A stretch of DNA of 64,000 bases. Origin: Squalus acanthias (taxonomy: Eukaryota). Each line of letters starts with the position of its first letter. Within the stretch, counting starts at the first letter, position 1. Of the stretch, positions 13,400 to 47,562 are shown piece by piece. The notes beneath the pieces were generated by a model. It saw only the letters and a list, made by a program, of their open reading frames with translations, ran no database searches and was not told where the DNA came from. The stretch lies in NCBI GenBank assembly GCA_030390025.1, contig CM059432.1:72046001-72110000 (forward strand), read 5' to 3'. Position numbers and translations under genes: made by a program.

Positions 13400-13410
13400 G
13401 TCAAGACGCG

Positions 13411-14826
13411 ATTCTGCACCCGACCATCTCCTCTTTGAAGGCCTCCCATTGTTTAATTACTGTTTTGCCTACCAATGTTTGATTCCAATCTACCTGGGCC
13501 AGATGCCTTTCCACTCACTGAAGTTAGCCCTCCTCCAGTTAAATATTTTTACACTTGATTGTTCCATGCCCTTTTCTATAACTATAACCTGGTGTTGTGC
13601 GACTTCTCACATTTGTCCACCCCAGTCCAACACCGGCATCTCCACATCTATGCTAAACCTAATGATATTGTGATCACTGTTCCCCAAATGCTCACCCACT
13701 GAAGCATGCTCCACTTTCCCACTTCATTCCCCAGAACTGGATCCAGCACTGTTTCCTTCCTCGTTGGACTGGAAAAGAACTGATCAAGAAAGTTCTCTTG
13801 TACACATTGCAGGAATTCCTCCCCCCTTTGCCCTTTATACTGTTACTATGCCGTGTCTATATTAGGATAATTGAAGTTCCCCATTACCACTACTCTGTAG
13901 TTCTTGCATCTTTCTGTAATTTGCCTGCAAATTTGCTTCTCTATCTCCTTCCTATTTGATGGCCTATTCTATACACCCAGTAGTGTAATAGCTCCTCCGT
14001 TGTTCCTTAATTCTAACCAAATAGATTCTGTCTTTGACCGCTCACATACATCAACCCTCTCCAGTGCTATAATAGTTTATTTTATCAATACTGCCACCCC
14101 CTCCTTTTTTTCCTTCCCTATCTTTCCTGAATACCTTGTAGCCAGGATTATTAAGTGCCCAATCCTCCCCCTCTTCGAGGCAGGTCTCTGTTATTGCCAT
14201 TATATCATAGTCCCATGTGGCAACTTGTGCTTGCAGCTCATCAACTTATTTACCACGCTACGTGCAGTTACACACATGCACTCCAAACCCATCTTAGACT
14301 GCCTCGTATTTGCCCCTGTCTGATCCCTCCTATTTCTGAATTATTCTTTACTCTAGTGCTATTTGTCTCTCCCACCGTGTTTCTCCTCTCTAATGTTTCA
14401 TCCTGGTGCCCATCCCGCTGCCAAATTAGTTTAAATCCTCCCCCATAGCACCAGTTAAACTTCCCAAGAGGATTTGGGTCCCAGCTCAGTTGATGTGCAA
14501 CCCATCCACCTTGAACAGGTCCTTCCTGCCCCAGAATTGGTCCCAATGGCCCAGGAGTCTGAAGTCCTCCCTTCTGCACCATTTCTCCAGTCATGCGTTA
14601 ACATATCTTATCCGACTATTCCTATACATACTAGCGCGTGGCACTGGGAGTAATCTAGAGATTACTACCTTTGACGTCCTGCTCTTTAATTTCCTCCCGA
14701 GCTTCTGAAACTCTGCCTGCAGGATCTCAACCCGTTTTCTTCCTATGTCATTGTTTCCCACATGGGCCACGACTTCTGGCTGTTCCCCTTCCCCCCCTCA
14801 AAATGTTCAACACCCTCTCAGTGATG
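13411..14826 (-). mobile_element. CR1 LINE fragment (ORF1 esterase 3' part and ORF2 endonuclease), decayed
   Basis: Homologous to 25440-30900 (QWEAFKEEM, GNFNYPNID, ORF1 SGNH-like region). Confidence 0.85.
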
Positions 14827-19149: not shown

Positions 19150-19710
19150 GGCCTTTGTTACCTCTCGTCTTGACTATTCCAACGCATTCCTGGCTGGCCT
19201 CCTATATTCTACCCTACGTAAACTTGAATTCATCCAAAACTCTGCGGCCCGTGTCTTAACTCGCACCGTGTGCTCGCTGACCTACATTGGCTCCCAGTTA
19301 AGCAATGTCTCAATTTTAAAATTCTCATAATTGTTCCAAATCCCTCCATGGCCTCGCCCCCTTCCTATCTCTGTAATCTCCTCCAGCCCCACAGCCCTCT
19401 GAGATATCTGCGCTCCTCTAATTCTGCCCTCTTGAGCATCCCTGATTTTAATCGCTCAACGATTGGCGGCCGTGCCTTTAGCTGCCAACGCCCTAAACTC
19501 TGGAATTCCCTCCCTAAACCTTTCTGCCTCTCTACCCCTCTTTCCTCCTTTAAGACGCTCCTTAAAACCTACCTCTTTGACCAAGCTTTTGGTCATTTTC
19601 CCTAATTTCTCCTGATGTGGCTCGGTGTCAAATTTTGTATATAATGCTCTTGTGAAGCGCCTTAGGACATTTTACTACATTAAAGGCACTATATAAATAC
19701 AAGTTGTTGT
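19150..19710 (+). mobile_element. L2 LINE 3' end
   Basis: AFVTSRLDYSNA, LHWLPV, LWNSLP and FKTLLKTYLF, followed by a 3' UTR ending CTATATAAATACAAGTTGTTGTT. Confidence 0.88.
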
Positions 19711-24189: not shown

Positions 24190-24718
24190 TAACCTCACCA
24201 TAGCATTTGATATGATTAACTATGCTATCCCCCGCCATCAGTTCTCCTTTGTTATCCACACCTACCTAGCGGAACATAGCCAGTGCATCTCCAGCAATAT
24301 CCGTTCTTCCTGGTACTACACTGTCACATCAGGAGTCCTCAAGGGTCCTTCCTTGGCCCTCTCCTCTTCCTCATCTATATGCTGCCCTGTAGTGCTGCCC
24401 GTGACCTAACTCGCACCAAGTCCCGTTCACCCATCACCCCTGTGCTTGCTGACCTACATTGGCTCCTGGTTAAGCAGTGCCTCGATTTCAAAATTCTCAT
24501 CTTTGTTTTCAAATCCCTCCATGGCCTCGCCCCTTCCTATCTCTGTAATCTCCTTCAGTCCCACAACCCCCCAAGATATCTGCGCTCCTCTAATTCTGCC
24601 CTCTTGAGCATCCCTGATTATAATCGCTCGACCATTGGTGGCCATGCCTTCTGTTGCCTAGGCCCTAAGCTCTGGAATTCCCTGCCTAAACCTCTCTGCC
24701 TTGTTACCTCTCTTTCCT
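24190..24718 (+). mobile_element. L2 LINE, 5' part of a copy split by a 12.5-kb insertion
   Basis: PQGSFLGPLLF, LHWLLV and LWNSLP. Ends TCTTTCCT and resumes CCTTTAAGAC at 37191; the joined sequence matches the uninterrupted copy near 19540. Confidence 0.88.
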
Positions 24719-24897
24719 GAAATTATTTTTTAAATATTCTTTTTTAATTTTTAAGTTTATAAGTTTATTTCTGCTAAGTTAGTTAATAGCCTATAAAATA
24801 GAGGAAAAGAGCTGATTGGTGAGTAGCTGGGGAGTGTTTTTTGTTAAGTTTTAAGTTTATTTCTGCTGGGTTAGTTCTCAGTCTATTAAATAGAGGC

Positions 24898-25718
24898 ATG
24901 GCAGGGCAGCTCAGTCCCATGGAGTGCACATCCTGTGCCATGTGGGAAGTCCTGGACGCTTCACGTAGCCTGGACGACCACATATGCAGGAAGTGTCACC
25001 AGCTACGGCAGCTCGAGCTCCGGGTTTCGGATCTTGAGCGGCGGCTGGAGTCACTGCGGAGCATCCGTGAGGCTGAGAGTTACGTGGATAGCACGTTTCT
25101 AGAGGTGGTCACCCCGCAGCTTAAAAGTATGCAGGCAGAGGGGGAATGGGTGACCGCCAGACAGAAGAGGAGGACCAGGCAGGTAGTGCAGGAGACCCTG
25201 GAGTGCATCGCGCTCTCCAACCAGTATTCTGTTCTGAGTACTGGTGGGGGCGATGGTTCCTCTGGGGAGTGCAGCCAGAGTCAAGTCAATGGCACCACGG
25301 GTGGCTCAGCTGCACAGGGGGGGAGGAAGAAGAGTGGAAGAGCAATAGTGGGAGGGGTTTCAATAGTTAGGGGAGCCGACAGGCATTTCTGCGGCCGCAG
25401 ACGTGACTCCAGGATGGTATGTTGCCTCCCTGGTGCCAGGGTCAAGGATGTCACTCAGCGGCTGCAGGACACTCTGAGGAGGGAGGGTGAACAGCCAGAG
25501 GTCGTTATCCAACGACATAGGTAGAAAGAGGGATGAGGTCCTGCAGGCAGAGTTTAGGGAGCTAGGAGAGAGATTAAAAAGCAGGACCTCAAAGGTAGTA
25601 ATCGCCGGATTACTCCCGGTGCCACGTGCTAGTGAGCACAGAAATAGGAGGATAGAACAGATGAATGCATGGCTGGAGAGATGGTGCAGGAGTGAGGGCT
25701 TAAGATTCCTGAGGCATT
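24898..25718 (+). pseudogene. CR1 ORF1 (zinc finger/leucine zipper + esterase), frameshifted; continues at 29810-29931
   Basis: ORFs 24841..25524 and 25487..25741. LRH|WDRFW is restored by removing 25719-29809 and one ATT. Confidence 0.85.
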
Positions 25719-27054
25719 GGGCTCGATTTTGCCAGGCCTGAGGAGGCGGGATTGGAGGCGTGTGAGGTGTTAAAATCGCAAAAAATGGCGGGTGGCTCTG
25801 ATCCCGCCTCCAGCCCACCTCCGAGCAATTTTCCCAGAATCAGGGTTTCAGACCCCGTTTCCATCCCGCCTCCAAGAGGCAGGATAGGCCCTTAAGTCCC
25901 TTAACAACCAGTTAATTGCCTCTATAATCCCATTTTGAGAGGCCTTTCTGATATTAACTCTTTTCCCCCGTCCTGCACGTCTCCTCTGGAACACGCCAGG
26001 TAATCCTGGCGGCCTCACAATTGGACTGCTTACTAACAGCTGCAGTTCCACCATTAAAAAGGAGTGTTCACCAATGATCATTTGCAGGTGGCAGAACTTT
26101 GTTGTCTCAGGTCTGGGGGAACTTTTAGCAGGCATATTCATTGTTGTGGAAGTTTGGAGCCTGACACCCATCTCCAGTGTGACCTCCTGGGAAACCCCTC
26201 TCCCCACCTTGACTGAGCGCTTCCTCAACTGAGGCATATACCAGAAGCATGGGAACCATTATTTCCTTTCCTCCTGGACATCAGATTCGGACGAAGACCA
26301 GCCGTGGCAGCAGCAGAACCATGAACAACAGCAGCACCAACAGCAGCAGCAACAACAGGAGCACCAAGCTGCTGCTCACCCACCTGAAGCTGCACAGGCC
26401 AGAAGGCGCCAGCGCGCGACCACATTGCTGCCCGGGATGCAAGGGACGCACTCATGTTGGCCAGATTTGCTTAGTCTGCACAATCAAACACTTTTGCCTC
26501 GCACCTTCTTACCAGAACATCGACAATGGACAAGTACCTGCAGATTCCTATCACTCTGACCACCATACTGACAATTGCAAGTCGCTCTAAGCCCTCAATG
26601 TGGAAGTCCCATTTGCGAAATGACACAGGCCACAACTTCAACAGTTTGCCATCAGAAATTTTTATCACAACAAGCAACTGATGGCATTTCAAAAATAAAC
26701 ACAACATAACACCCAAGTGACTACCCTTGTGACTACTTGTGCATTATCTTCCTCTTACGCATGCTCCTACGTGGTGCTTCCCCTGTGGTTTCAGCAGATG
26801 TGGAGACCCATTGCTCACTTTCTTGCTGCTCCTGTCTCAACACCTTTGGCGGCTGTCCTCTGGGGTTGCGAACCTGTGAGGGCTCGGCAACAGTCCGCTG
26901 CTCCTGCAGCTGTGCAGGGGATGAGATACCCATCTCAGTTGGGTGAGGACTGTGGTGGGGCTCTGACCGAGGGCTTTGCAGTGGCATGGTCGTGTGAGCG
27001 CTTGGAGAGGAGCCCCACTTCCTTGTTGTCTGCCACCAACAACCCTCTCATGGG

Positions 27055-28657
27055 TCAGCCCCACTTCAGAGCTAGCAAGTGGCTTGACAGCACCTTGCTG
27101 CACTTCAGGGGGGCCATGAGGACCCGTTTCTGCACTGGAAGTCCAACTCCAGAGGATTTCCATGAAGGTCTGGTTTCTATGCTGAATAGCTGACCATCGA
27201 GAGTTGCCAGTCTATTCTGAACAATGACCATGTTTTCAACACTCTGGCGACTTAGCGACGTAGCCATCCTCTCCTCTACCATAGCCATCCTTTCCACGGA
27301 GGCTGCCATCCTTTCTGTGGTGATGCGTTCATGCGCCAATGCCTCCACAAAGGCTCTGCTCATGTTCGCGATGGACTGCTCCATTCGCTCCACACACGCA
27401 GCGACCCTGGAGACAAAACCTGCCAGAGACTCCTGCACCTGTTCCTGGAGTTCCAGCACCGCTCTCCTTCTGGATGGACCCGGAGGCACAGGGTCGACAT
27501 GCAGCTGAGCTGAGCTGGCAGAGTCCTGCGCCCTCCGACGAAGACTCTCCACTGCTGTCCCTGTCTCCACCATCTGCTGATGCTCACTTGTGAGCTGTGA
27601 TACACCAGGTGACAACACTACTCTATCTCGCGAAGGTCCCACTGAGGTGTGAGTGTCTGCGCTGGTGCTGGGTGCGCTGAATTCTGCTGACGCTGCGCCC
27701 TCAGAAGTTGCAGCTTCCTCTGAGGAGTCTTGAAGCTCAGGCTGTTCCTCCTGGACAGTGGGGACGGGGGCTGTCGATGGTCCTGTGGGGGAGTAAAGGA
27801 AAGAGTTAGAGATGTGAGGTAAAGGTTGCATGCACATTGAATTGTGCAGATGATCATAAGTCAATCTGTTAGAACATCAGAATCATTATCAGTCACTCAT
27901 GCAATGTCAATGAGAGAGATGCCAAACTATTCTGTCATCAGCTTGCTGTGATGCGCCCGTCTGTCCGTCCCCCACTTGCGAATCTTCCCCGACACCGGCG
28001 ATTTCCAGGGCCGCCTCCTCCGAGGTGGTGAGCTGGGCTACTGAGGGTGGCCCTCCTCCTGTCCTCGCTCTTTCCCTTTTATTGTGGGCTCTCTTTTCCT
28101 GCAATGAGGGACACAAGTGGAGTTTGAGTGAGAATGAAGGAGTGAATGTAGAGAATCCATAGCATAGATGCTTAGAAGGAGACAAAGGGCCCTCCCTGTG
28201 TGTTGTAAGTTGTTGTCATTGCATCACAGTGATAGGGAGTGTGAGGGCTGCATGGTCGAATAGTTAAGTGAATGTGACCATAGAGAGAGAGGGAATGGGT
28301 GAGGGAGCAGGGATGTCAGTGTCAAGTAGGATGTGGAGGAAAAGGTTGGCAAAGCAGAGTGCTGGTGAGGAGAGGCGATGGGGATCAGATTGAGGGTGAT
28401 GGGAAAGTCATACTCACTTTTCCTGTGCGGAGAAGGTCATGAAACCTCTTCCTGCATTGCAGCCAGGCTCTGCGGCTCATAGAGATTGAGTTGACCTCCT
28501 GGGCCACTTGCATCCACACAGCTTTAGTCTGCTGGGGAGGCTTTTTCCTCCCTGAGGAAGGGAAGAGCACCTCCTTATTTAATCTTGCTCCCTCCACCAG
28601 AGCTTGGAGGGAGGCCTCATCGCACCTTGGAGCACACTTTGGCCTACTGCTGGACAT
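27055..28657 (-). pseudogene. Myb/SANT-like gene, exons 28657-28418, 28098-27939, 27782-27055; exon-2 donor is AT instead of GT
   Basis: APRCDEASLQALVEG...WLQCRKRFHDL and EKRAHNKRERARTGGGPP. All three exon frames are open. Confidence 0.8.
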
Positions 28658-28701
28658 AGTTGCTGAATGAAGCGATCACAACAATGGCCATAAAGTTTAA
28701 A

Positions 28702-29577
28702 GGGGGAAAAATTCAGTTGGTTGCGCCTCCCGTTAGCGTCTTAAGAGGGCGCTAATGGGGCGCAAAGCAGCTAGCGCCCGGGCGCGGCGATGTTTGCGCC
28801 GCTCACGAAATTAACTAGACATTTTGCGGCGGTGCTAAACACTACCGCCACGATCTCCTGCGCCGGCAGATCGTGACGTCAGTCGAGTGCGCAACGCCCC
28901 GGTATCGCCCCGGAGCGGATATTGAGTGGCGCCCCCTGCTAGCAACGACAGGGTGAGGGGAGCTTTTTGCAGTCAGGAAGGGACTGGGGGAGCGCTATTT
29001 AAAGGCGACTGCTTCCTGCCTTTTATTGTTGGTGACATTTTTGAACCACGCATTCTGAGAGAGAGAGAGAGACTTCTGGAGAGATTCAACGCTGTGTGAA
29101 GGAGTTTTGGGTACTGAGCAGCACTTTGCAGGTTCATTTTGATTTGCCCTTCCTTGTATCGATTTAGAAGAGACTGTGGGGGCTGCACTCTGAGCTCTTT
29201 CCCTGGTACTCTCCATTGTTCTTTCCAGCAAATTTGATGTACAGGTCTCTCCAGGCCGAGATTCAAGGCTGCAATGAGCAGAATGTGGATGGAAAGCAAG
29301 ATCAACCCTCCCCTTTAAGAACTGGCCCACGCCATTCTGTCTGTGTTCCATTGCTGACTGACATCACATGAGCTTCACCAGCGCTCTGAGGTAGCGCCTC
29401 GCTCCTCGGCCTTTGCGCCTTAAGACAGGTGTGAAGCGCCTGATTTAGCGCTCCAATCACCTCCGGGGGCGATAAAAGTCAAGTTTGCAGTCGGAGGCGA
29501 TAATTAGCGGCAGGCGCTAATCTTTGCGCCCGGCTGATAATTGCGCCCCAAATGGGGCAATACTGAATTTCTCCCCC
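28702..29577 (-). mobile_element. Non-autonomous Harbinger (876 bp), related to 37996-42102
   Basis: TIRs GGGGGAAAAATT / AATTTCTCCCCC and AAA TSD. It is an inverted copy of 35387-36279. Confidence 0.92.
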
Positions 29578-30079
29578 AAAGTCTCCAGAAGAAGCAAGGC
29601 TGCTTGCAGGCCTTAAATCCAGCAGCATTGATGACGTCATCGGAGGTGACTTTCTGTATGAAAAGACTCATTGGGTTTCCACATGCTGGAAATCAAGTGC
29701 CCAATTAGGGCAAAATCACACTTTTTTCCCACTTCACATCGGAGTTGGGGTCCTGACACAAAAACCACCTGACATGCCCCAACCCGCCCCCAATGGCAAA
29801 ATCAAGCCCATTGGGACCGTTTCTGGGTAAGGTGGGACCTGTACAAGCCGGACGGGTTACCCCTCAACAGAGCCGAGACCGATATTCTCATGGGGAGGTT
29901 TGCTAGTGCTGTTGGGGAGGGTTTAAACTAGCTTGGCAGGGGGATGGGCACCAGCATATAGGAGTAGAAAAGAGGAATAAGGTGCATAGAAGAGTCAGTG
30001 TGTTGGATAGTACTAGAGATGAAAGTAGTACTTGAGGCGGAAGGAGCAGACTTAAGAAAGACTACGAAAAATTCAAAAA

Positions 30080-33000
30080 TGGGTTTAGAATGCATGTACG
30101 TAAACGCACAAAGTGTGGTGAATAAGGTTGGTGAGCTACAAGCACAATTAGCCGTGTGGCAATATGATGTTGTGGCAATAACGGAAATGTGGCTTAAAAA
30201 CAGTGAGGACTGGGCACTTAATATTCAAGGGTACAAGGTGCTCAGAAAAGATAGGGAAGGAAAAAAGGGAGGTGGGGTGGCAGTGCTGATTAAGGAAGAC
30301 ATTGTAGTGTTGGAAAGGAAGAATGTTCTTGAGGGGACAAGGACAGAATCCATTTGGTTAGAGTTGAGGAGCAAAAAGGGTATGATCATGCTATTGGGGG
30401 TATTCTATAGGCCTCCAAATAGTGAGAGGGAGGTAGAGGAGCAAATCTGTAGGGAAATTGCAGAGATATGCAGGAGCTATAGAGTGATGATATTGGGGGA
30501 CTTTAATGACCCAAATATCGATTGGGATAATGCTTGGGTAAAGGGAAAGGAGGGGGACGAATTTCTGAAATGTGTTCAGGAGAATTTCCTTGACCAATAT
30601 GTTCTTGGCCCAACTAGGAAGGAGGCATTGCTGGATCTGGTGCTGGGGAATGAGGTGGGCCAGGTCGACCAAGTGTCTGTGGGAGAACACTTGGGTACGA
30701 GTGATCATCGTATCAGAAGATTTAGATTAGCAATGGAGAGGAGCAAGGAACAATCTAGAGTGTAACTTCTAAACAGGAATAGGGCTAACTTCAATGGGAT
30801 GCAAAAGGATCTAGCCAGGGTAAAATGGAACCAAAGACTGACAGGAAAAACTGTAACGGAACAATGGGAGTTCTTTAAGGAGGAGATGTTCCAAGTTCAG
30901 GCTAGGTACATTCCAACAAGAGGGAAGGGTAAGAAAACCAAAGCAAGGGCTCCTTGGATGACGAGGGAGATAGAGAAGATGATGAAACAAAAAAAGAGGG
31001 TGTATGATGCATGTCAGGTGAATTCTTCAAGGGAGAACCAGACCAAATACAATAAGTTGAGAAGGGAAGTGAAGATGAAAATAAGATTGGAAAAGAGAGA
31101 ATATGAGAGTTGAATGGCGATTAACATAAAAGGGAACCCAAAAATCTTTTACTGGCATGTAAACAGTAAACGGGTAGTAAGAGGCAGCGTGGGGCCTATT
31201 AGAGACAAAGAAGGTGATATATGCTTAGAGGCGCAGGACAAGGCTAGAATACTCAATGAGTGCATTGTATTGATATTTACTAAGGAGGTGGATGTTGACA
31301 AAATATTGATAGAAGTGGAAAAGGTAGAAGCAACGGAAGGGGTGAAAATTGATAGACACAATGTACTAGAAAGGCTGGGTATGCTTAGAGTGGACAAGTC
31401 GCCTGGTCCAGATGGCTTGTATCCCAGTGGCAAATGTGACATCATTGTTCAAGAAAGGGTGTAACTACAGGCCGGTCAGTTTAACATCAGTGGTGGGTAA
31501 AGTTTTAGAAACAATAATAAAGGAAAAAATTAATGGGCACTTGGAGAAGTTTAAGCTAATAAAGGGAGCCAACACGGATTTGTAAAAGGCAGATCGTGTT
31601 TGACGAATCTAATTGAATTTTTTGATGAAGTAAGAGAGATTTTTGATGAAGGGAATGCAATGGATGTTGTCTTCATGGATTTTCGGAAGGCGTTTGACAA
31701 AGTACCACACAGAAGGCTGGTTAACAAAATTGAGGCTCATGGAATAGGTGGGTCAGTGGCAGATTGGATAAGGAATTGGCTTAAGGACAGAAAACAGCGA
31801 GTTGTGGTAAATGGCTGTTTTTCAGACTGGAGGATGGTAGACAGTGGCATTCCCCAAGGGTCAGTGCTGGGGCCACTGCTTTTTTTGATATATATATAAA
31901 TGACCTGGATATTGGAATACAGAGTAGAATTTCTAAATTTGCCGATGACACCAAACTTGGGGGTATGGCAAACAGTGAGGATGATACCAATCGACTGCAA
32001 CAAGACATAGAAAGGCTAGCAGAATGGGCAGACAAGTGGCAGATGGAATTTAATACAGAGAAGTGTGAGGTGATGCATTTTGGCAGAAGGAACAGGGAGA
32101 GGCAATATACACTTAATGGCACAGTTTTAAAGAGTGTGCAGGGACAGAGGGACCTGGGAGTTAATGTGCATAGGTCCCTGAAGGTGGCAGGACATATTGC
32201 GAGAGTGGTTAGCAAAGCATATGGGATCTTGGGCTTCATAAATAGAGATAATAGGCCAGAAATTCGGCTGTTGTCGGGTGAGTACGCGCTGTGTACTCAC
32301 CCGTAAGGCCATCTGAAGTGTCGGTTTCCTGCATGCACTGCGCATGTGCGGGAAACCGGAACTTCCGTTCCCCTGAAGGGAGGGGTTCAGAAGTCGAACG
32401 CGTGCGCGGGAGAAGCTGCGCGCATGCAGCGAACTTCGTTATTTTTTTTCAGGTTTCTCCGGGAAGGTAAGTATGAAGAAGCTACGCTTTTAAAAAGGAG
32501 GCGCAAGGCCTGTTTTTAACAAGGTAAGTGGTTAATTAATTACAATGAAAAAAAAATTTCAACAGATTTATCTTTTTTAGATACTTTAAAGAAAGGTAAG
32601 TTTATTTTTAGCACCGTTACAAAGTATAATTACATTTTTCAAAAATTTAAATTTATTTAACTTATAGTTATTTTTAAAATGTGATTTAAAAAAAAAATTA
32701 TTTGAAGTTTAAGTGTAGTTTTGGGGCCGATCTCTATGCATAGATTTGACAGGTCTTCCTGTCAAATCTATGAATGAAAATGCCCTGCTAGGATTGGCTC
32801 TCCATGGCCCACGTGATCCCAGGGGACGCTTCGAACTAACTGCGCCGGCAGCTGGAGGAGGCCCAGGACCCGAAGTCCTTGTGGGCCCAAAGCACAACAG
32901 CAGGCGCGGTAGGCAAGTACGCGCGCGATGCTTGCACCCGCAGGAAGCCTGAAAGCTGAATTTCTGGCCCATTGAGTACAAAAGTAGAGAAGTTATGCTG

Positions 33001-33213
33001 AACCTTTATAAAGCGCTGGTTAGGCCACAACTGGAGTATTGCGTCCAGTTCTGGTCACCACATTTTAGGAAGGATGTGAAGGCCCTTGAGAGGGTGCAGA
33101 GGAGATTTACCAGAATGGTTCCGGGGATGGGGGATCTTAGCTACAAGGACAGGTTGGAGAAGCTGGATTTGTTTTCATTAGAGCAAAGGTGGTTGAGGGG
33201 TGATTTGATAGAG
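30080..33213 (+). pseudogene. CR1 ORF2 (APE-RT), broken by stops, frameshifts and an insertion
   Basis: ORFs 29998..30765, 30799..31464, 31600..31899, 31965..32306 and 32995..33300. Confidence 0.9.
32253..32970. mobile_element. Harbinger-type MITE (718 bp) inside CR1 ORF2
   Basis: Ends AGGCCAGAAATTC / GAATTTCTGGCCC. It interrupts GFINR..IEYKS; the TSD is imperfect (AAT/ATT). Confidence 0.8.
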
Positions 33214-35375
33214 TTGGCAGGCATCCTCTGGGGTTGCAAGCCTGTGAAGGCTCGCCAACAGTCTGCTGCTCCTGCGGCTGTGCAGGGGCTGAGACGCTAA
33301 TTTCAGTTGGGTGAGGACTCTGGTGGGGCTCTGACCGAGGGCTCTGCAGTGGCATGGTCGTGTGAATGCTTGGAGAGGAGCCCCCACTTCCTTGTTGTCT
33401 GCCACCAACATCCCTCTCATGGGTCAGCCCCACTTCAGAGCTAGCAAGTGGCTTGACAGCACCTTGCTGCTCTTCAGGGGGGCCATGAGGACACGTTTCT
33501 TCACTGGCAGTCCTACTCTAGAGGACTTCCATGAAGCTCTGGTTTCTCTGCTCAATAGCTGACCTCGCTCCTCCAGAGATGTCAGTCTATTCTGAACAAT
33601 GGCTATGTTTTCAATACCCTGGCGACTAAGCTGCTCCATGGCCGTAGCCATCCTCTCCTCTACCGTAGCCATCCTCTCCTCTACGGTAGCCATACTTGCC
33701 ACGGAGGTAGCCATCCTTTCCACGGAGGTTGCCATCCTTTCCATAGTGATGCGTTCATGCGCCAATGCCTCCACAATGGCTCTGCTCATGTTCGCGATGG
33801 ACTCCTCCATCCGCTCCACACATGCAGTGACCCTGGAGACAAAACCTGCCAGAGACTCCTGCACCTGTTCCTGGAGTTCCAGCACCGCTCTCCTTCTGGA
33901 TGGACCCGGAGGCACAGGGTCGACATGCAGCTGAGCCGAGCTGGGATCGCCCTGCGCCCTCCGACAAGGACTCTCCACTGCTGTCCCTGTCTCCACCATC
34001 TGCTGATGCTCACTTGTGAGCTGTGATATACCAGGTGACAACACTACTCTATGTCCCGAAGGTCCCACCGAGGTGTGAGTGTCTGCGCTGGTGCTGGGTG
34101 CACTTAATTCTGCTGACGCTGCGCCCTCAGAGGTTGCAGCTTCCTCTGAGGAGTCTTGTGGCTCAGGCTGTTCCTCCTGGACAGTGGGGAGGGGGGCTGT
34201 CGATGGTCCTGTGGGGGAGTAAAGGAAAGAGTTAGACATGTGAGATAAATTGTGCAGATGATCATAAGTCAATGTGTTAGAGCATCAGAATCAATATCAG
34301 TCACTCATGCAATGTCAATGAGAGAGATGAAAAACTATTCTGTCACCAGCTTGCTCTGATGCACCCGTCTGCCCGTCCCCCATTTGCGCATCCTCCTTGG
34401 CTCCCACGATCTCAAGGGCCGCCTCCTCAGTGCTGGTGAGCTGGGCTATTGAGGGTGGCCCTCCTCCTGTCTTCGCCCTTTCCCTCTTATTGTGGGCTCT
34501 CTTTTCCTGCAATGAGGGACACAAGTGGAGTTTGAGTGAGAATGAAGGAGTGAGTGTAGAGAATCCATAGCATAGATGCTTAGAAGGACACAAAGATGGA
34601 GTGAGGTCCCAAGACCAAGGGCCCTCCCTGTGTGTTGTAAGTTGTTGTCATAGCATAACAGTGATAGGGCGTGTGAGGGCTGCTTTGTCAAATAGTTAAG
34701 TGAATGTGTACATAGAGAGAGAGAATGGTTAATGGTGCAGGGATGTAAGGGTCAAGTGGGATGTGGAGGAGGAGGTTGACATTGAAGAGTGCTGATGATG
34801 AGAGGCGATGGGGAGCAGATTGAGGGTCATGGTGATGTCATACTCACTTTTCCTGTGCGGAGAAGGTCATTAAACCTCTTTCTGCACTGCAGCCAGGTTC
34901 TGCTGCACATTGAGATGGCACTGACCTCCTGTGCCACTTGTAGCCACACAGCTTTTGTCTGTTGGTGAAGATTTTTCCTCCCAGAGGAAGGAAACAGCAC
35001 TTCCTTCTGAGCTCTTGCTCCCTCCACCAGAGCTTGGAGGGAGTCCTCATCAAAGCGGGGTGCGCACTTGGATCTTGAGCTTGACATCCTTGCAAAAGAA
35101 ATCCCTCAGAACTGTGTCCAGAAACAGATGTAAAGCAGAAAATGAACCAAGGCTGTTTGCAGACCTTAAATGCAGCTGCATTAATGACGTCATCAGAGGT
35201 GAGTTTCAGGACCAAAAGACTCATTGGGCCAGGGGTCCCCACACACTGGAAATCAAGTGCCCAATTAGGGCAAAATCGCCAAATTATCCCGCCTCACATC
35301 GGAGGTGGGAGCGGGACCCGCCCACCAACTGACTCGCCCACCAACTGACCCGCCCCCAATGACAAAATCCAGCCC
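33214..35375. mobile_element. Second 'Myb-only' Harbinger family copy, left end deleted
   Basis: Homologous to 26845-29809 without the nested element. The right TIR GACAAAATCCAGCCC is followed by TAT. Confidence 0.88.
33424..35087 (-). CDS. Harbinger Myb/SANT-like DNA-binding protein, predicted 394 aa; exons 35087-34848, 34506-34347, 34208-33424
   Basis: GT-AG introns in phases 0 and 1 give an open spliced frame: APRFDEDSLQALVEG...RTWLQCRKRFNDL, TGGGPP, and coiled-coil heptads. Confidence 0.75.
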
Positions 35376-35386
35376 TATGACTCTAT

Positions 35387-36279
35387 GGGGGAGAAATTCT
35401 GTATCGCCCCATTTGGGGCGCAATTATCGGCCGGACGCAAAGATTAGCGCCTGGCACTAATTATCGCCACCGACTGCAAACTTGACTTTTATCGCCCCTG
35501 GAGGTGATTGGAGCGCTAAATCAGGCACTTCACACCTGTCTTAAGGCGCAAAGGCCGAGGAGCGAGGCGCTACCTCAGAGTGCTGGCGAAGCTCATGTGA
35601 TGTCAGTCAGCAATGGAACACACACACAATGGCACGGGCCAGTTCTTAAAGGGGATGGTTAATCTCACTTTCCATCCACATCCTGCTAATTGCAGCCTTG
35701 AATCTCGGCCTGGAGAGACCTGCACATCAAATCTGCTGGAAAGAACAATGGAGAGTACCAGGCAAAGAGCTCAGAGTGCAACCCCCACAGTCTCTTCTAA
35801 ATCGATACAAGGAATGGCAAATCAAAATGAACCTGCAAAGTGCTGCTCAGTACCCAAAACTCCTTCACACAACGTTGAAACTCTCCAGAAGTCTCTCTCT
35901 CTATCTCTCAAAATGCGTAGTTCAAAAATGGCACCGACAATAAAAGGCAGGAAGCGGTCACCTTTAAATAGCGCTCCCCCTTTCCCTTCATGACTGCAGA
36001 ACGCTCCACTCAAACTGTCGTTGCTAGCGTCAGGCGGTAAGGCAGGGGGCGCCGCTCAATATCCGCTCCGGGGCGATACCGGGGCGTTGCGCACTCGACT
36101 GACGTCACGATCTGCCGGCGCAGGAGATCGTGGCGGTAGTGTTTAGCGCCGCCGCAAAATGTCTAGTTAATTTCACGAGCGGCGCAAACTTCGCCGCGCC
36201 TGGGCGCTAGATGCTTTGCGCCCCATTAGCGCCCTCTTAAGGCGCTAACGGGAGGCGCAACCAACTGAATTTTTCCCCC
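35387..36279 (+). mobile_element. Non-autonomous Harbinger (893 bp), copy 1 of tandem pair
   Basis: GGGGGAGAAATT / AATTTTTCCCCC ends with a TAT TSD. Confidence 0.93.
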
Positions 36280-36290
36280 TATGACTCTAT

Positions 36291-37183
36291 GGGGGAGAAA
36301 TTCAGTATTGCCCCATTTGGGGCGCAATTATCGGCCGGGCGCAAAGATTAGCGCCTGGCGCTAATTATCGCCACCGACTGGAAACTTGACTTTTATCGCC
36401 CCTGGAGGTGATTGCAGCGCTAAATCAGGCGCTTCACACCTGTCTTAAGGCGCAAAGGCCGAGGAGCGAGGCGCTACCTCAGAGCGCTGGCGAAGCTCAT
36501 GTGATGTCAGTCAGCAATGGAACACACACACAATGGCACAGGCCAGTTCTTAAAGAGGATGGTTAATCTTGCTTTCCATCCACATCCTGCTCATTGCAGC
36601 CTTGAATCTCGGCCTGGAGAGACCTGCACATCAAATGTGCTGGAAAGAACAATGGAGAGTACCAGGCAAAGAGCTCAGAGTGATGCCCCCACAGCCTCTG
36701 CTAAATCGATACAAGGAATGGCAAATCAAAATGAACCTGCAAAGTGCTGCTCAGTACCCAAAACTCATTCACACAACGTTGAATCTCTCCAGAAGTCTCT
36801 CCCTCTCTCTCTCAGAATGCGTAGTTCAAAAATGGCACCAACAATAAAAGGCAGGAAGCGGTCACCTTTAAATAGCGCTCCCCCTTTCCCTACATGACTG
36901 CAGAACGCTCCCCTCAACCTGTCGTTGCTAGCGTCAGGCGGTAAGGCAGGGGGCGCCACTCAATATCCGCTCCGGGGCGATACCGGGGCGTTGCGCACTC
37001 GAGTGACGTCACGATCTGCCGGCGCAGGAGATTGTGGCGGTAGTGTTTAGCGCCGCCGCAAAATGTCTAGTTAATTTCGCGAGCGGCGCAAACTTCGCCG
37101 CGCCTGGGCGCTAGATGCTTTGCGCCCCATTAGCACCCTCTTAAGGCGCTAACGGGAGGCGCAACCAACTGAATTTTTCCCCT
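36291..37183 (+). mobile_element. Non-autonomous Harbinger (893 bp), copy 2 of tandem pair
   Basis: Same TIRs (terminal C>T) and TAT TSD. Highly similar but not identical to copy 1. Confidence 0.93.
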
Positions 37184-37190
37184 TATGACT

Positions 37191-37357
37191 CCTTTAAGAC
37201 GCTGCTTAAAACCTACCTCTTTGACCAAGCTTTTGGTCACCTGCCCTAATTTATCCTTATGTGGCTCGGTGTCAAATTTTTTGTCTTAAAATACTCCTGT
37301 GCAGTGCCTTGGGATGTTTTACTATGTTAAAGGCGCTATATAAATACAAGTTGTTGT
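37191..37357 (+). mobile_element. L2 LINE 3' end (continuation of 24190-24718)
   Basis: CCTTTAAGACGCTGCTTAAAACCTACCTCTTTGACC...CTATATAAATACAAGTTGTTGT. Confidence 0.88.
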
Positions 37358-38352
37358 AGTGTCAGCTTTTATATATTTGGACCACTCCCAGCTTTTCCTC
37401 TCCACCACCTCTCTCAACCCAGTGATCATCTCTGTGCTGCCAGACTGCCATTCTGACATCAAATCATGGCTGAGTCAAAAATTCCTCCAAATGAATATCA
37501 GGAAGACTGAAGCCATCATATTGGGCCCCTCAATAAACTCTGCTCCCTCGCAACTGATTGTATTTCTGTCCCCAGCCACTTGTTTAGGGTGAACCAGACT
37601 ATGTAAAATCTTCGTGTCCTGTTTGATCCAGAGCTGAGTTTCAATCCCCATGTGCTAGCCATCACTAAGACCATTTATTTCCACCACTGCAACATTGCCC
37701 ATGTCAGTCTCTGCTCTATTTCATCTCCTCTGTTGCAGAAACAGTGATCCATGCTGTTATCACCTCTAGACTCAATTTCCCCAATGTTCTTCTTGCCAGA
37801 CTCCCATCTAAAACAAAGAAGGAAAGAAAGAAATTGATTGATGGTATTTATATAGCGCCTTTCACAACCTCAGGACTTTCCAAAGCGCTTCATAGCCAGT
37901 GAAATACTTTTGAAATGTAGTCACTACTGTAATTTAGGGAAACGCAGCAGCAAATTCAACTTGTCGAAAACTCAGCCATTCATGTACCACACTAAGGGGG
38001 AAAAATTAGGTCGCGCCCCGTTTGGGGCGCAAATATCGTCTGGACGCAAAAATTAGCGCCTGGCGCTAATTATCGCCACTGACTGGAAACTTCACTTTTA
38101 CCGCCCCGGGAGGTGAGTGGAGCGTTGATCAGGCGCTGCACACCTGTCTTAAGGCGCAAAGGCCGAGCAGTGAGGCGCTAACTCAGCGCGCGAGCGCAGC
38201 GCAGGTGCTGCCAGTTAGCGAGGGAACACAGACACACTGGCGCCAGCCAGTTCTTAAAGGGGGGGGGGCCAACTTGCTCCCCAGCCACACCCTGCTCATT
38301 GCAGCCTTGAATCTCGGCCTGGAGAGACCTGTAATCCATTTTGCTGCCAAGG

Positions 38353-40118
38353 ATGGAGAGGGTGAGAGAACGAGCTCAGCGCTTCACCGAGCGGGCCTTG
38401 GATGCTCTGGTTGGCGCGGTGGAGCGCAGAAGATCTATACTCTTCCCTGAGAGTGGCAGGAGGCCTTTGCCACGCGAGTACAGAAGAGTGTGGAGGGAGG
38501 TGGCTCAGAGCGTCTCCTCCAGGAGCATGGTGCCCAGGACCCATGTTCAATGCCGCAAAAAGTTCAACGACCTCACTCGGGTCGTCAGGGTGAGTGGCTT
38601 TTTCTCAATACCTCTCCATCCCTCCATCTCAACCTCACTCTATGGCCAGAGGGTCTTAAAACCCCAATGCACAACACTCATCCAACACCTATGGCCCTTT
38701 CATGAAACACACACACACATTCCACACTTTGCATACAGTAAGGGCTATTCACCTATGGGAGGCACATCAGGCAAGACCATGGCTGTATATTTACTCAGAT
38801 GCTGTCCTTTTTCTTGCAGGCCAAGCTGGCGCATAATAGGAGACAGCAGCAACGGACAGGTGGAGGGCGGCCTCAGCTGCAACCCCTCAGCGATCTTGAG
38901 GAGCGCGTCCACAGGATTGTGGCAAGCCGGGTGATCGGTCCCGTCGCCACTGGAGACGCCGATCCCGTTCTGGACAGCAATGGTAAGGTCATCACCTTTT
39001 TGTCCTCTGTCCTTCCACTTGTCCCTCACAACACCAGCCTTTGACACTTTCAATCCAACTTGCTAACTCGCTGCACTTATTCCTCCCTTACTGCCACCCT
39101 GTCCTCACGCTAAAGCCACTCTTGTACCTCCCTGCTTTCAGATGGTGATTCACCAGCTGAGGAGACGGGCCCTGAAGCTGCCAGTGGGAGTGAAGCTGCA
39201 GCCAAGGAGGAAGAGGAAGCCGGAGCATCAGTGCCACCCTCTCCCGAGGAAGCCCATGCCCACACTGGGAACACGCCTTCCCTGGCGGGGAGCAGGGGGG
39301 AAGGGTCTGATGAGGGTGAAGCTCCAGGACCCAGCGGGCTGCAGCAACGCCATGGGGGTAGGGAAGAACGGGGGCCTTCTCCCCAGAGGGAGAGTATGCC
39401 AGCGACTCCTACTGCAATGGACGCAGAGGAGGAGCGGCTGATCGCAGAAATGAACACCCAGGCGGTGGGCATGCACACTGAGCTCATGGGTGCAGTGGGA
39501 AGGGTGCCCGAATGCATTGAGTCACTGGCAAGGAGTGTGGAGCACTTCGCTGTAGCACAGGCGGATGCCACACTAAAGCTTAGTGCTGCAATTCAGTCAC
39601 TGACTGCCGTGATCCCATCTCTGACTGCTCTCATGCAGACTCAGATTGAGGCCACGCGAGCACTGACTGCTGCCAACCTCGATGGTTCGTTCACATGTCC
39701 CCGGGGCTCTCACCGCGCCGCAGCAGGACAGCAATCTGTGCTCCAGCAGATTGCTCCGGATGCTGAAGTGCTGCCCCGTGGGAGTGCCAGTGTGTCGGTC
39801 GAGCAGGGAGTTGCTGTCCTCTCTCACGATGACAGCATTCCTGCTGCCAACACTGTCACTTCTCCACTGCACTTGCCACCGCCTGTAGGACAGACTGCTG
39901 CCGCCCATGCAGAGTTGGTGCAGTCTGCAGCCGGGCCCTCCAGGCCCAGAACTGGTCGAGGCCGTCCTTCAGGGGCATCTGCAGTGTCAGGGTCTGACAA
40001 TCAGCAGCCTTCCACCAGCCATGCTGCAGCCACTGAGGTCCCATTACGGAGGAGCAGTAGGGTAAGAAGGGGGGAAGTGCGCAAGGGAAGGAGATCACCC
40101 TCGAAGGGCAAAAAGTAG
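38353..40118 (+). CDS. Harbinger Myb/SANT-like DNA-binding protein, predicted 458 aa; exons 38353-38589, 38820-38982, 39142-40118
   Basis: MERVRERAQRFTERALDALV...WREVA...RTHVQCRKKFNDL. Donors are GTGAGT and GTAAGG, acceptors TTGCAG and TTTCAG. The spliced length is 1377 nt and in frame. Confidence 0.88.
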
Positions 40119-40430
40119 GAGGTGTGACAAAATGCTGGTCATTTTTTTATTAAAGGCCGAGGTTCGTGGTCCAACTTTTGTTTAGTGTTTTGGACATTAT
40201 CTCCAGGTTGTGAGAACCAGTTATGTTAATGACTGTTTTTTTGTGTTTATTTCTATGAGTTTGTCATGAGGAATTGACACACACAGAGTTTGTAAAATAA
40301 ATAAGTTTTTGTATTCAAAATATACATGTTTGGTGTTTGGAATCATTGGTGCCTTGGCCGGCTTAGGGGTTGCGTGCTGGGTTCATTGATGTTGTTAGCA
40401 ATGGCAGAAGCCATTTCCACAGCAGGGGCC

Positions 40431-41591
40431 CTAGAAGCGGCTTGCTATCAGCCGTTGACGGACGGCCCTTGCAGTTTGACCATTGTGGGCCGCCCTCCCG
40501 CCTTGGTGCTGCTGATGATCATCCTCCTCGTCCTCTTCCTCCTCTTCCTCCTCCTCCTCTGGTGGTGCTCCAAGGCCTGGTGGCATTGGCTGGGTCCTGA
40601 GGATTGCCATGTTATGCAACATGCAGCACACAACTACGAAGTTGGATACTCGCTCAGGCGAGTACTGCAGGGCTCCTCCAGAATGGTCGAGACAGCGGAA
40701 CCGTTGCTTCAGCACGCCGATTGTGCACTCAATGATGTTCCTGGTAGCTTGATGGCTCTCGTTGTACCGCAGCTCAGCAGGGGTGTTGGGCGTACGGAGC
40801 GGTGTCATCAGCCAGGTGCTCAATGGATACCCCTTGTCCCCGAGAAGCCAACCAACTGGCTGATGTGGTGCCTCGAAAAGTTCTGCCACAGTAGTCTGGC
40901 GCAGGATGAAAGCATCGTGGCAGCTGCCAGGATAGTGGGCATTGACAGCTAGTATCAGCTGTCTGTGGTCACAGACCAACTGAACATTCAAGGAATGGAA
41001 CCCCTTTCTGTTCCGGAGTTCCTCGGCATTCTCATGTGGAGCACGCAAAGCCACATGCGTGCAGTCAATGGCGCCCTGCACCATGGGGAAGCCCGCTATC
41101 CTCGCAAAGCCCAGAGCGCGGTCACGCTGCTTGTCTAGGGTCATGGGGAAAGAGATGAACTCTCGTCTCCTTTTAAAGAGGGCATTTGTGACCTGCCGGA
41201 TGCAGCAATGCACCGCGAACTGGGAGATATTGGCAAGGTCCCCAGCAGCAGCTTGAAATGAGTCAGTAGCATAGAAGTTGAGAGCCACTGTGACCTTCAC
41301 TGCCACCGACAGAGACGTCCTGGACCTCAGTTGAGGCTGCAGATCTGGCTGCAGCAGGTGGCAGAGCTCAGTGACCACCTCCTTGCTGAATCGCAGCCTT
41401 CGCAAACACAGCTCCTCAGACATATGAATGTAGGAGAGCTGTTCACGATATACCCTGGGAGGGTAAGCTCTCCTGTACAGACGCCTGTTGGCCCTCCTCC
41501 GTCTGGCCATCATTGCCACTCTCTCTGTGCGTCTCTGTGTCCTCCGATTCAGCTGGAGCAGGACGACGCCCCCATTCAGTGCAGCCCCCAT
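40431..41591 (-). CDS. Harbinger DDE transposase (HARBI1-like), 386 aa from first ATG
   Basis: GAIDCTH, NRKGFHSLNVQLVCD, PGSCHD, LLGDKGY, RNIIECTIGVLKQRFRCL and CCMLHN. No stops. Confidence 0.95.
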   Translation of the reverse strand: MGAALNGGVVLLQLNRRTQRRTERVAMMARRRRANRRLYRRAYPPRVYREQLSYIHMSEELCLRRLRFSKEVVTELCHLLQPDLQPQLRSRTSLSVAVKVTVALNFYATDSFQAAAGDLANISQFAVHCCIRQVTNALFKRRREFISFPMTLDKQRDRALGFARIAGFPMVQGAIDCTHVALRAPHENAEELRNRKGFHSLNVQLVCDHRQLILAVNAHYPGSCHDAFILRQTTVAELFEAPHQPVGWLLGDKGYPLSTWLMTPLRTPNTPAELRYNESHQATRNIIECTIGVLKQRFRCLDHSGGALQYSPERVSNFVVVCCMLHNMAILRTQPMPPGLGAPPEEEEEEEEEDEEDDHQQHQGGRAAHNGQTARAVRQRLIASRF

Positions 41592-42781
41592 AGTCTCTTT
41601 GCAAGCAAAGTTATGAAGGACAGCAACCAAAGTACCAGCGAAGTTAGGATCAGTAGGCAAAACTACCTCACAAAGTGTTGACTCAATGCAGAAGTCTCTC
41701 TTTCTCTCTCTCCGAATCTCTCTCTCTCTCTCAGAACAAGTGGTGCAAAAATGTCAACCACAGAAAAAGACAGGAAGAGGCCCCCTTTAAATAGCGACAC
41801 CCCCAGCCCCACAGCGATTGATAGCGTTCCAGTCTTCCGGTCGTTGGATGCGCCAGGCGGTAAGGCAGGGGGCGCCACTCAATTTCCGCTCCGGGGCGCC
41901 ACAAGGGCGTTGCACCATGGAATGACGTCACAATCTGCGTGCGCAGGTGGTCGCGGCGGTAAAGTTTAGCGCCACCGCACAATGTCTAGTTAAGTTCCCG
42001 AGCGGCGCAAACATCGCTGCGCCCGGGCGCTAGCGGCTTTGCGCCCCATTAGCGCCCTCTTAAGGCACTAACGGGAGGCGCAACCAACTGAATTTTTCCC
42101 CCTAAGTCTCACTTGCCCATCTCCCCTGTCCTCACTGACCTACTATGGCTCCCTGTCCCCCAGTGCATGAAATTCAAAATCCTCATCCTCATCTTCAAAT
42201 CCATCTGCAGCCTCATCCTACCTTATCTTTGCAACTTTCCTCAGACCTATATACCCTGAATTCTGTGGTCATATGACTTCTGCCTCTTGTACATTCCTCC
42301 TTCCCTTTGCCCCACCACTGGTAGCCAACCTTCAGCTGCCTCAGCCCTGTTCTTTGGAATACTTCATTAAACCCCTTCACCTTCTACACCCTCTTCCACC
42401 TTTAAATGCCTTCTCAAAACCCATCTTTTCAATCTAGCTTTTAGTTGCCATCTTATCTCTCCCTCTGTGGCTCGGAATCCATTCCCTACTCTCTGTAAAG
42501 TGGCTTGGACGTTTTCTACATTAAAGATGTCATTATTACACGTAAATTTTCTTTTACTATTACATTTATAAAATATGTATTTGTAACATGATTCAGTAAA
42601 GATGATGGACTTAATAAGCTTTCAAGAACCAGCATTATAGTTTTACTATATCCAGTGTTTTCCTTTTGTCATAGTTAAAGCTTTGACACAAAAAATATTC
42701 CTGATTAATATGGTGAGTCAGTGCTGCAGTGTAAATTAAACTGACTCACATTCTCAATTCTCATTTTAATCCAGGAATTTA

Positions 42782-46142: not shown

Positions 46143-47562
46143 GGGGCTAAAAATTCATGTCTTCAGCGACACGAGATGGTGATAAAGCGCCTGCCACCAC
46201 TCTACCGCCAGCTGGTGGCAGTTCCAGTGGCAGGCACCATTTTTGAGTTGCCGGTATCGATGCCGGTAAATTCAATCGCTGGGGACATTTAAATCACTGA
46301 GATCATGACGTCAGTGAGTGGGCAACGCTCACTTGACGCCCGATCTCCTAATGTGGTTTTGGCCATTGCAGTTACCGGATGGAGAAAGCAACGACAGGTA
46401 GAGCTGGCGTGCTGCAGCAGGAAGCCGGCTCCAGCAACGATATTTAAAGGGATCATCACCAATCACTTGCACCTGACATGGTTTTGCAGTTTGAGTGGCT
46501 GTGTGCTACTTCCTGCAATTGCAAGAGTATTCTTTAGTTATTTGGTATCAGGGAGTGTTCTGGCAAGTACAATACTCATTCATGTAGTTTGAAGCGTTTC
46601 AAAAATAAACATATGCTAAAGGTCATGTACTGACTGTACTGACAGTTGACCTCGCCCTCCAGGATCTACGGCGGAGGGAGAGGAGGTAGCGAGAAAGACG
46701 GGAACATGTGTGCAGAGAGAGGAGGAGGGCCATCAGGGCTCTCAACAGGAGGCCTTACCCACCTAGGGTCTTCCGACAGCACTTCTCCTACCTCCAATTA
46801 AGCGAGAAGCAGTGTATTAGGAGATTCCGCTTCACCAAGGAGGTAGTCACAGAACTCTGCCACCTCCTGCAACCAAACCTCCAGCCTCAGACCAGGGTGA
46901 CCACAGCTCTCCCAGTGGCATTCAAAGTCGCCATGGCCCACAATTTCTTCACCAGCGGACCCTTCCAGTCTGCAACAGGAGATATATCTAACATCTCACA
47001 GTTCACCGCAGAAAAGGCAGGCGGCCTGGGACAGCTGTTCAGTGTACTCTTTTAAATTTGGGTGGTTAACCAGATGAACTGTAAATCAATAAAACTTTAA
47101 ATAAACCTTAACAAATTAAATTAAAATTTGGTAGCCCGGGGTGATGATGCACTCCAGTCCCCACGGCGCCCACCGGTCGCGGAAAAACTCAAGCGTGCCG
47201 GCGGACACCGAGCTGTTCAGTGTACTCTTTTGATTTGGGTGGTTAACCGAATAAACTGTAAATCAATAAAAACTTTAAATAAACCTTAACAAATTAAATT
47301 AAAATTTGGAAGTCCGGGGTGACGATGCACTCCAGTCCCCGCGGCGCCCACCGGTCGCGGAAAAACTCAAGCGTGCCGGCGGACACCGAGCTGTTCAGTG
47401 TAACGCCAATGAGCTTGAGTTTTAAGACTGTAATCATGACTAAAATCATGTTAATGATGAGTGAGCACGAACTTTGCATGCTAACTAGACCCTCTTCAGG
47501 TGACGTAGCTTAACCTTAGTTAGTCTAAACACTGCCCATTTCTTGGCTATATTGAATTTCTA
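46143..47562. mobile_element. Internally deleted Harbinger (family of 58330-62327)
   Basis: GGGGCTAAAAATT start, transposase 5' remnant (46620-47005), and a right end homologous to 62150-62327. Confidence 0.85.
47033..47402 (-). repeat. Two 178-bp tandem units resembling Tx1-like LINE 3' ends, bounded by three copies of AGCTGTTCAGTGTA
   Basis: Repeat starts at 47033, 47211 and 47389. The minus strand encodes SVSAGTLEFFRDRWAPRGLECIVTPDFQILI* followed by an AT-rich UTR. Confidence 0.7.

Follow-up and report, generated by a model that had tools for sequence, protein, structure and literature searches.

Three Harbinger transposons in register in one CR1 tail of Squalus acanthias, probably set by a target motif that overlaps itself at 8 bp

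Introduction

How do three DNA transposons come to lie side by side, without nesting and at a constant distance from one another? The question is raised by a locus in a window of 64,000 nucleotides, the whole stretch of DNA analysed here, from Squalus acanthias (GCA_030390025.1, CM059432.1:72,046,001-72,110,000, forward strand; genome of 3.71 Gb). At positions 33,214-37,357 of this window the end of a Myb-bearing Harbinger is followed by an 11-bp spacer, a first 893-bp element (E1), an identical spacer, a second 893-bp element (E2) and one octamer, an order that can be read from the sequence with exact coordinates. An earlier, sequence-only reading had described the array as Harbinger elements, of at least two families, inserted in the same phase of successive units of a CR1 tail. 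Both parts of that description hold: each element sits on its own TAT triplet, and the families are represented by the Myb-bearing end and by the 893-bp elements. The features to which we refer are as follows.

24405-24718, + strand: left piece of an L2-type 3' end, interrupted by the CR1 (87% identical to the unsplit copy at 19266-19546)
24719-33213, + strand: CR1 body, last ~345 bp deleted
33214-35375, - strand: left-truncated Myb-bearing Harbinger, whose surviving inverted-repeat end adjoins tail unit 1
35376-35386, + strand: spacer 1, a TAT duplicate, 5 tail bases and a TAT duplicate
35387-36279, + strand: E1, 893-bp non-autonomous Harbinger of subfamily 1 (98% like 29 dispersed relatives)
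36280-36290, + strand: spacer 2, same sequence as spacer 1
36291-37183, + strand: E2, 893-bp non-autonomous Harbinger of subfamily 2 (98% like a further 29 dispersed relatives)
37184-37191, + strand: final CR1-tail octamer, its last 3 bases common to the resuming L2
37189-37357, + strand: right piece of the split L2-type 3' end (87% identical to 19545-19710)
37996-42102, no strand assigned: related autonomous-type Harbinger outside the array, with a TAA duplication

Results

The elements of the array

The Myb-bearing Harbinger on the left retains a Myb_DNA-bind_5 domain (34851-35090, E 1.2e-9, Pfam) and is 85% alike to another copy in the window (26856-28694); a DDE core is absent from those of its full-length relatives that were inspected. 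E1 and E2 are each flanked by TAT on both sides, and the final base of E2 (37183) has changed from C to T. The original tail comprised three units, with one insertion per TAT. Public contigs placed on 36700-37600 are split by the repeats into pieces of ~60 bp, none of which spans the junction; the loose ends ahead of 37189 run on as L2.

E1 and E2 can be placed in the Harbinger superfamily because their ends are common to the element at 37996-42102 (76-81% alike for E1), which codes for a DDE transposase (DDE_Tnp_4, E 1.7e-38, 40434-41753) as well as a Myb/SANT protein (Myb_DNA-bind_5, 38335-38592; Pfam). This element is a relative, and at most a candidate mobiliser.

Three other features of the window are recorded here for completeness. 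A 178-bp tandem pair lies within a Harbinger-like element (47033-47402), and an unbroken frame of 1,326 amino acids on the - strand (9479-13456), which encodes domains for protease, reverse transcriptase, RNase H and integrase, is the pol of an LTR retrotransposon, apparently a young one. At least nine other organisms carry 22-49% of the words of the window; its element families are thus common to related species and usable for comparison.

The host CR1 and its missing end

The split element, which we take to be an L2, breaks off at 24718 and continues from 37189, which means that the intervening DNA represents one CR1 insertion and its later guests. The clade name CR1 is likewise our presumption, Pfam support being limited to an APE-type endonuclease domain at 29968-30762. 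Other Harbingers interrupt the CR1 body at 25719-29809 and 32237-32970; the former is a full-length member of the Myb-only family to which the first element of the array belongs, and nested in it is a third copy of the 893-bp family (28702-29577, AAA duplication, target of 9.3 bits).

The body ends at about 33213-33216, without its last ~345 bp, and from the adjoining Myb element ~1.1 kb is missing on the left. From these two absences we infer that a later deletion took the CR1 3' end together with the left arm of the first element and joined what remained, which is why the octamer tail is not continuous with the CR1 body. Close relatives of the CR1 do have an octamer repeat at a CR1-type 3' end: copies 95-98% identical to 32971-33216 bear the same octamer tail ~345 bp downstream, the tail being visible in six of the 11 closest hits while the other five are cut or interrupted. 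The identification of the octamers in the array as the tail of the CR1 starting at 24719 is thus supported both by the L2 bracket and by comparison with its relatives. The claim that the array occupies the place where this tail belongs stands as regards position, by virtue of the L2 bracket and the CR1 relatives, and has to be amended as regards contiguity of tail and body.

Separate origin of E1 and E2

The sequence-only reading had left room for the two 893-bp copies to derive from one tandem duplication; an assembly echo was considered along with it. E1 and E2 are indeed alike in orientation, length and 904-bp period, and elsewhere 4 of 30 junction loci hold same-orientation pairs at 94-98% identity; the other 26, however, pair inverted copies or different families (900 bp compared per side). 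E1 and E2 show 34 differences (96.3% identity), whereas genome searches with each of them return non-overlapping sets of dispersed relatives at 98% (29 loci examined for each, the best of 40 scored): the two copies are not sisters, each being nearest to its own dispersed set. Fourteen diagnostic columns part the two subfamilies, with E1 carrying 13 of 14 subfamily-1 states and E2 all 14 subfamily-2 states, and comparison with the 29 + 29 dispersed relatives reveals no private change shared by E1 and E2. These subfamily states and the lack of common private changes rule out a duplication or an echo for the window array, a reading to which we assign a negligible probability; on the diagnostic columns, E1 and E2 are shown to have inserted independently.

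The target motif and its overlap with itself

A target profile was derived for the 893-bp family, using 81 sites outside tails whose duplications are intact. It is a palindrome, approximately (T)WARASWY-WWW-RWSTYTW(A), for which real non-tail sites have a leave-one-out median of 8.2 bits. In the TAT phase the tail scores 10.5 bits, in the other seven phases less than -2; the window's two other tail octamers have lower scores (7.7 and 4.7). Overlap of the profile with itself is maximal at an offset of 8 (13.5x analytically; 5x, and the best median, on real flanks, where the peak is noisy and offsets 29-30 have similar means from single sites), with offset 7 second and offsets 3-5 suppressed. 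The overlap at 8 arises because the outer bases of the half-site are similar to the triplet that is duplicated, and its five inner bases read alike on both strands.

Target duplications are 3 bp long: 104 of 137 paired-end copies of the 893-bp family have identical flanks, and the triplets at 86 sites include ATA/TAT 29 times, TAA/TTA 14, CAA/TTG 10 and CAG/CTG 2. In the other 33 of these 137 young copies the 3-bp flanks do not match; some of these cases are boundary miscalls, but a good number are one base apart, perhaps more than a copy divergence of 1-3% predicts, and the window element at 32237-32970 is noted alongside them. Two further observations bear on the targets. Among non-tail insertions the scores of the two half-sites are anti-correlated (Spearman -0.46, n = 81), which a threshold would produce, as would the loss of sites perfect in both halves. 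In the sample of 137, moreover, the same base of other repeats, namely CR1 bodies and another repeat end, has been struck repeatedly by independent copies (L006/L116; L014/L093/L146; L044/L118; L016/L025/L053).

Arrays and spacers in the genome

The exact end-spacer-end junction has 93 copies in the genome, versus none for the reversed control. A relaxed search (spacers of 3-30 bases, one inverted-repeat type) gave 407 strand matches, the first 100 of which correspond by hand tally to 66 places. The spacer measures 11 bp in 49 of these places, 12 bp in 2 (extra C or G), 10 bp in 8, 9 bp in 2 and 16-27 bp in 5, and is never 3-8 bp long; among these matches the observed lengths agree with the offsets at which the profile overlaps itself. 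Extrapolation from the 66 places, for the one inverted-repeat type, yields ~270 adjacent pairs genome-wide. Arrays with the 11-bp spacer occur in both orientations and comprise several families; L199 and L200 are further three-element arrays, and L203 has the same order of Myb element and neighbour as the window. The Myb-only element of L203 also contains an expanded 37-bp minisatellite (L203:2750-3270).

Sixteen loci with atypical spacers were fetched: five are pairs at 11 bp outside a CR1 tail (L181, L182, L183, L188, L192), three are tail-less pairs at 10 bp (L185-L187), six are tail variants and two are ambiguous. Since the profile from non-tail sites selects the TAT phase alone and the same spacing arises without CR1, the register is most likely set by the transposon motif and not by CR1 as such.

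The 11-bp spacer word has 27,699 copies in the genome against 1,450 for its control, and 1,943 of the 27,699 directly precede the inverted repeat, of which 68,342 ends were counted under a single flank restriction. Copies of the 893-bp family number at least 7,101. A CR1-tail location was found for 23 of 78 complete copies sampled in the order in which they lie on one contig, and for 7 of 58 selected by similarity; the tail calls in these two samples include six added by eye, with one duplicate dropped, and ~15 listed ends had no mate of normal length. Enrichment at CR1 tails is thus large, on both the junction count and the 23 of 78 copies. The notion that CR1 tails serve as a reusable landing pad is borne out by this enrichment, and has to be qualified in that the pad is not specific to CR1, the target being an ordinary palindromic one.

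Occupancy of the tails

The filling of tail sites was estimated from 100 occurrences of the spacer word in positional order, ~87 of which, by eye, come after either a preceding unit or the 3' end of a LINE. An inverted repeat, of at least four types, follows the word in 19 of the 100 and precedes it in 10, with 3 having both. In 13 of the 19 filled rows the element is followed by a full next unit and in 3 by a unit that varies at one base, the remaining 3 being ambiguous; the same 100 rows contain 15 empty full sites. Two-sided tail sites are filled at a level of ~41-46%, whereas among ~72 truncated sites no more than 6 are filled (≤8%), and it follows that the second half-site matters inside tails. 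Double hits exceed independence by 1.6-1.9x (13 of 100 rows versus 1,943 of 27,699). This modest excess, together with the scatter of tail copies over the family tree described below, indicates that arrays come mostly from high independent occupancy; strong cooperativity between neighbouring insertions was considered and rejected, the excess of doubles being so small.

By rough arithmetic, the 893-bp family fills tail sites ~7-15x more than non-tail sites of equal score. Use of the tail above the additive profile means that something is missing from the latter, possibly non-additive recognition, a tail-specific factor or the fact that the profile was learned from leftover sites.

A possible depletion of ideal sites

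Empty sites were counted in 1.43 Mb of fetched loci, chosen around insertions, and compared with Markov models of order 2-4. At ≥12 bits there are 9 against 22-28 expected, and at ≥13 bits there is 1 against 7-10; below 10 bits no clear deficit with respect to the Markov expectation is seen in these loci. Observed/expected ratios for the reversed profile are 0.9-1.4, only 0-1 of 50 column-permuted palindromic profiles are as low as the true one, and a tail-masked version of the count agrees. Genome-wide, there are 1,764 instances of the perfect 13-base core that have TAA/TTA at the centre, versus 6,548, 4,888, 2,380 and 2,970 expected (orders 2-5), expectations so dependent on the model that this count by itself is suggestive only; the reversed-control core occurs 20,442 times, equal to or above most expectations. 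CR1 tails account for 22 of the first 50 empty perfect cores listed.

If half of the young ideal sites have been filled, few old ones would remain, and the profile obtained from recent non-tail insertions would have been learned from leftovers. Target exhaustion by Harbinger is thereby suggested, from small, model-dependent counts at loci chosen for their insertions. That the best Harbinger targets are largely spent in this genome, with each new CR1 tail still supplying ideal sites at an 8-bp period of which about half are filled, giving rows of transposons with constant spacers, is a proposal that we entertain tentatively and would put a little short of an even chance.

Discussion

These results can be accommodated by a simple scheme. 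Each of the three Harbingers would have independently duplicated the TAT of one successive octamer, the ordinary palindromic target of the transposase having an 8-bp overlap with itself, so that the tail amounts to its near-perfect concatemer. An insertion would preserve the neighbouring site 8 bp away, whose left half is then made of the duplicated triplet and 5 tail bases, and later elements could land on that site. We regard three independent insertions, brought into register by the 8-bp self-overlap of the motif, as very probable on the sequence comparisons above; that the Myb-type family uses the same motif as the 893-bp family we infer from its occurrence in tails.

A role for CR1 ends beyond their sequence, through tethering, chromatin or adaptation to a safe haven, would account for the share of tail copies in the two samples (23/78 and 7/58) and for a filling ~10-fold over the additive profile. 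We nevertheless consider such steering unlikely, because filling within tails tracks the second half-site, equal spacing arises without CR1, motif-bearing sites in CR1 bodies are also struck repeatedly, and the motif resembles the target of zebrafish Harbinger3_DR as given in PMC3016246, so that it need not have evolved for the tail. The share of tail copies would also rise, without new cut-and-paste events, if CR1 sources with a Harbinger already in their tail had retrotransposed the composite. Such piggy-backing is contradicted in our sample, in which tail copies do not cluster: a tail copy is the nearest neighbour of 4 of 23 tail copies versus 6.6 expected (permutation p 0.78), the family tree has them dispersed, with 23 label changes versus 21.6 in shuffles, rare variants are shared at background level, and both orientations are found in tails (18 and 12). 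It can hardly be given any credence.

A second copy might instead land beside a first because of the resident, by local hopping or attraction, as the 1.6-1.9x excess of doubles and three inverted neighbours 97-98.5% alike (L067, L070, L086) would allow. In the window, though, the neighbours belong to different subfamilies and families; 98% is the usual identity within a subfamily, and age differences among tails would alone yield a modest excess, all of which makes this route improbable. The preferred reading remains independent insertion at overlapping sites.

On that reading, one mobile element builds the niche of another, at a saturation level that can be counted. From the arrays the target motif of a vertebrate Harbinger can be read in its natural setting, which bears on the use of Harbinger as a site-selective tool; they also offer a temporal ordering of CR1 and Harbinger bursts. 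If the exhaustion reading is true, growth of a DNA transposon superfamily would be coupled to the activity of an unrelated LINE; and if depletion is genome-wide, this would be a rare eukaryotic transposon that, by using up its own targets, has measurably altered which words a large genome contains. If there is no depletion, we would be looking at a passive overlap of two known habits.

Comparison with known systems

Work on the zebrafish element Harbinger3_DR is reportedly due to Sinzelle et al. 2008. Like the elements described here, it belongs to a two-gene DDE plus Myb superfamily with GGG-starting inverted repeats, in the parts of the sources consulted (PMC3016246, PMC2836001), and the outer bases of its extended palindromic target fit the half-site found here (PMC3016246). 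The preference is therefore probably older than the CR1 tail, by analogy. Harbinger3_DR differs in having a CWG centre in place of A/T-rich triplets (PMC3016246), and the passages seen mention neither the LINE-tail hot spot nor the arrays present here (PMC3016246, PMC2836001).

In the sections consulted of the paper that separates NuwaI, defined by CWG duplications, from PIF/Harbinger, defined by TWA (PMC4482050), both groups resemble our elements in their GGG-starting inverted repeats, 3-bp duplications, animal hosts and DDE-only transposase plus Myb/SANT protein; the 893-bp family departs from both in its relaxed A/T-rich triplets. It shows the general traits of the PIF/Harbinger (PHIS) superfamily, with inverted repeats, 3-bp duplications and a related element that encodes a DDE protein and a separate Myb/SANT partner. 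ATA/TAT is the commonest triplet, TAA/TTA accounting for 14 of 86 and CAG/CTG for 2 of 86, so that neither the narrow TWA nor the CWG definition describes it.

The SaTar elements of guayule and rice are Mutator-like, with an unusual recombination mechanism proposed; from what we could consult of that report (PMC5907723), they too form linear, non-nested, microsatellite-linked arrays of unrelated non-autonomous DNA transposons, with neighbours fused by deletions. Arrays of this general type are seen in the window and at L199, L200, L203 and L205. SaTar arrays have variable-length satellites of the (TA)n type and often no ordinary duplications, in contrast to the fixed 11-bp spacer, the LINE-made satellite and the normal 3-bp duplications of the Harbingers described here (PMC5907723). 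The literature covered, mostly outside subscription journals, Repbase reports and supplements, contained no Harbinger arrays in LINE tails that we could find, nor any eukaryotic transposon depleting its own target sites. In mPing and PIF, according to the portions consulted (PMC2836001), the preference likewise reaches past the 3-bp duplication, over 9 bp as compared with the ~19 bp, self-overlapping at 8 bp, found here. Microsatellite-linked arrays in plants (PMC5907723) and an extended target preference of Harbinger are hence already known; new here are the constant-spacer arrays from self-overlap of the motif at 8 bp, the measured saturation and the exhaustion hypothesis.
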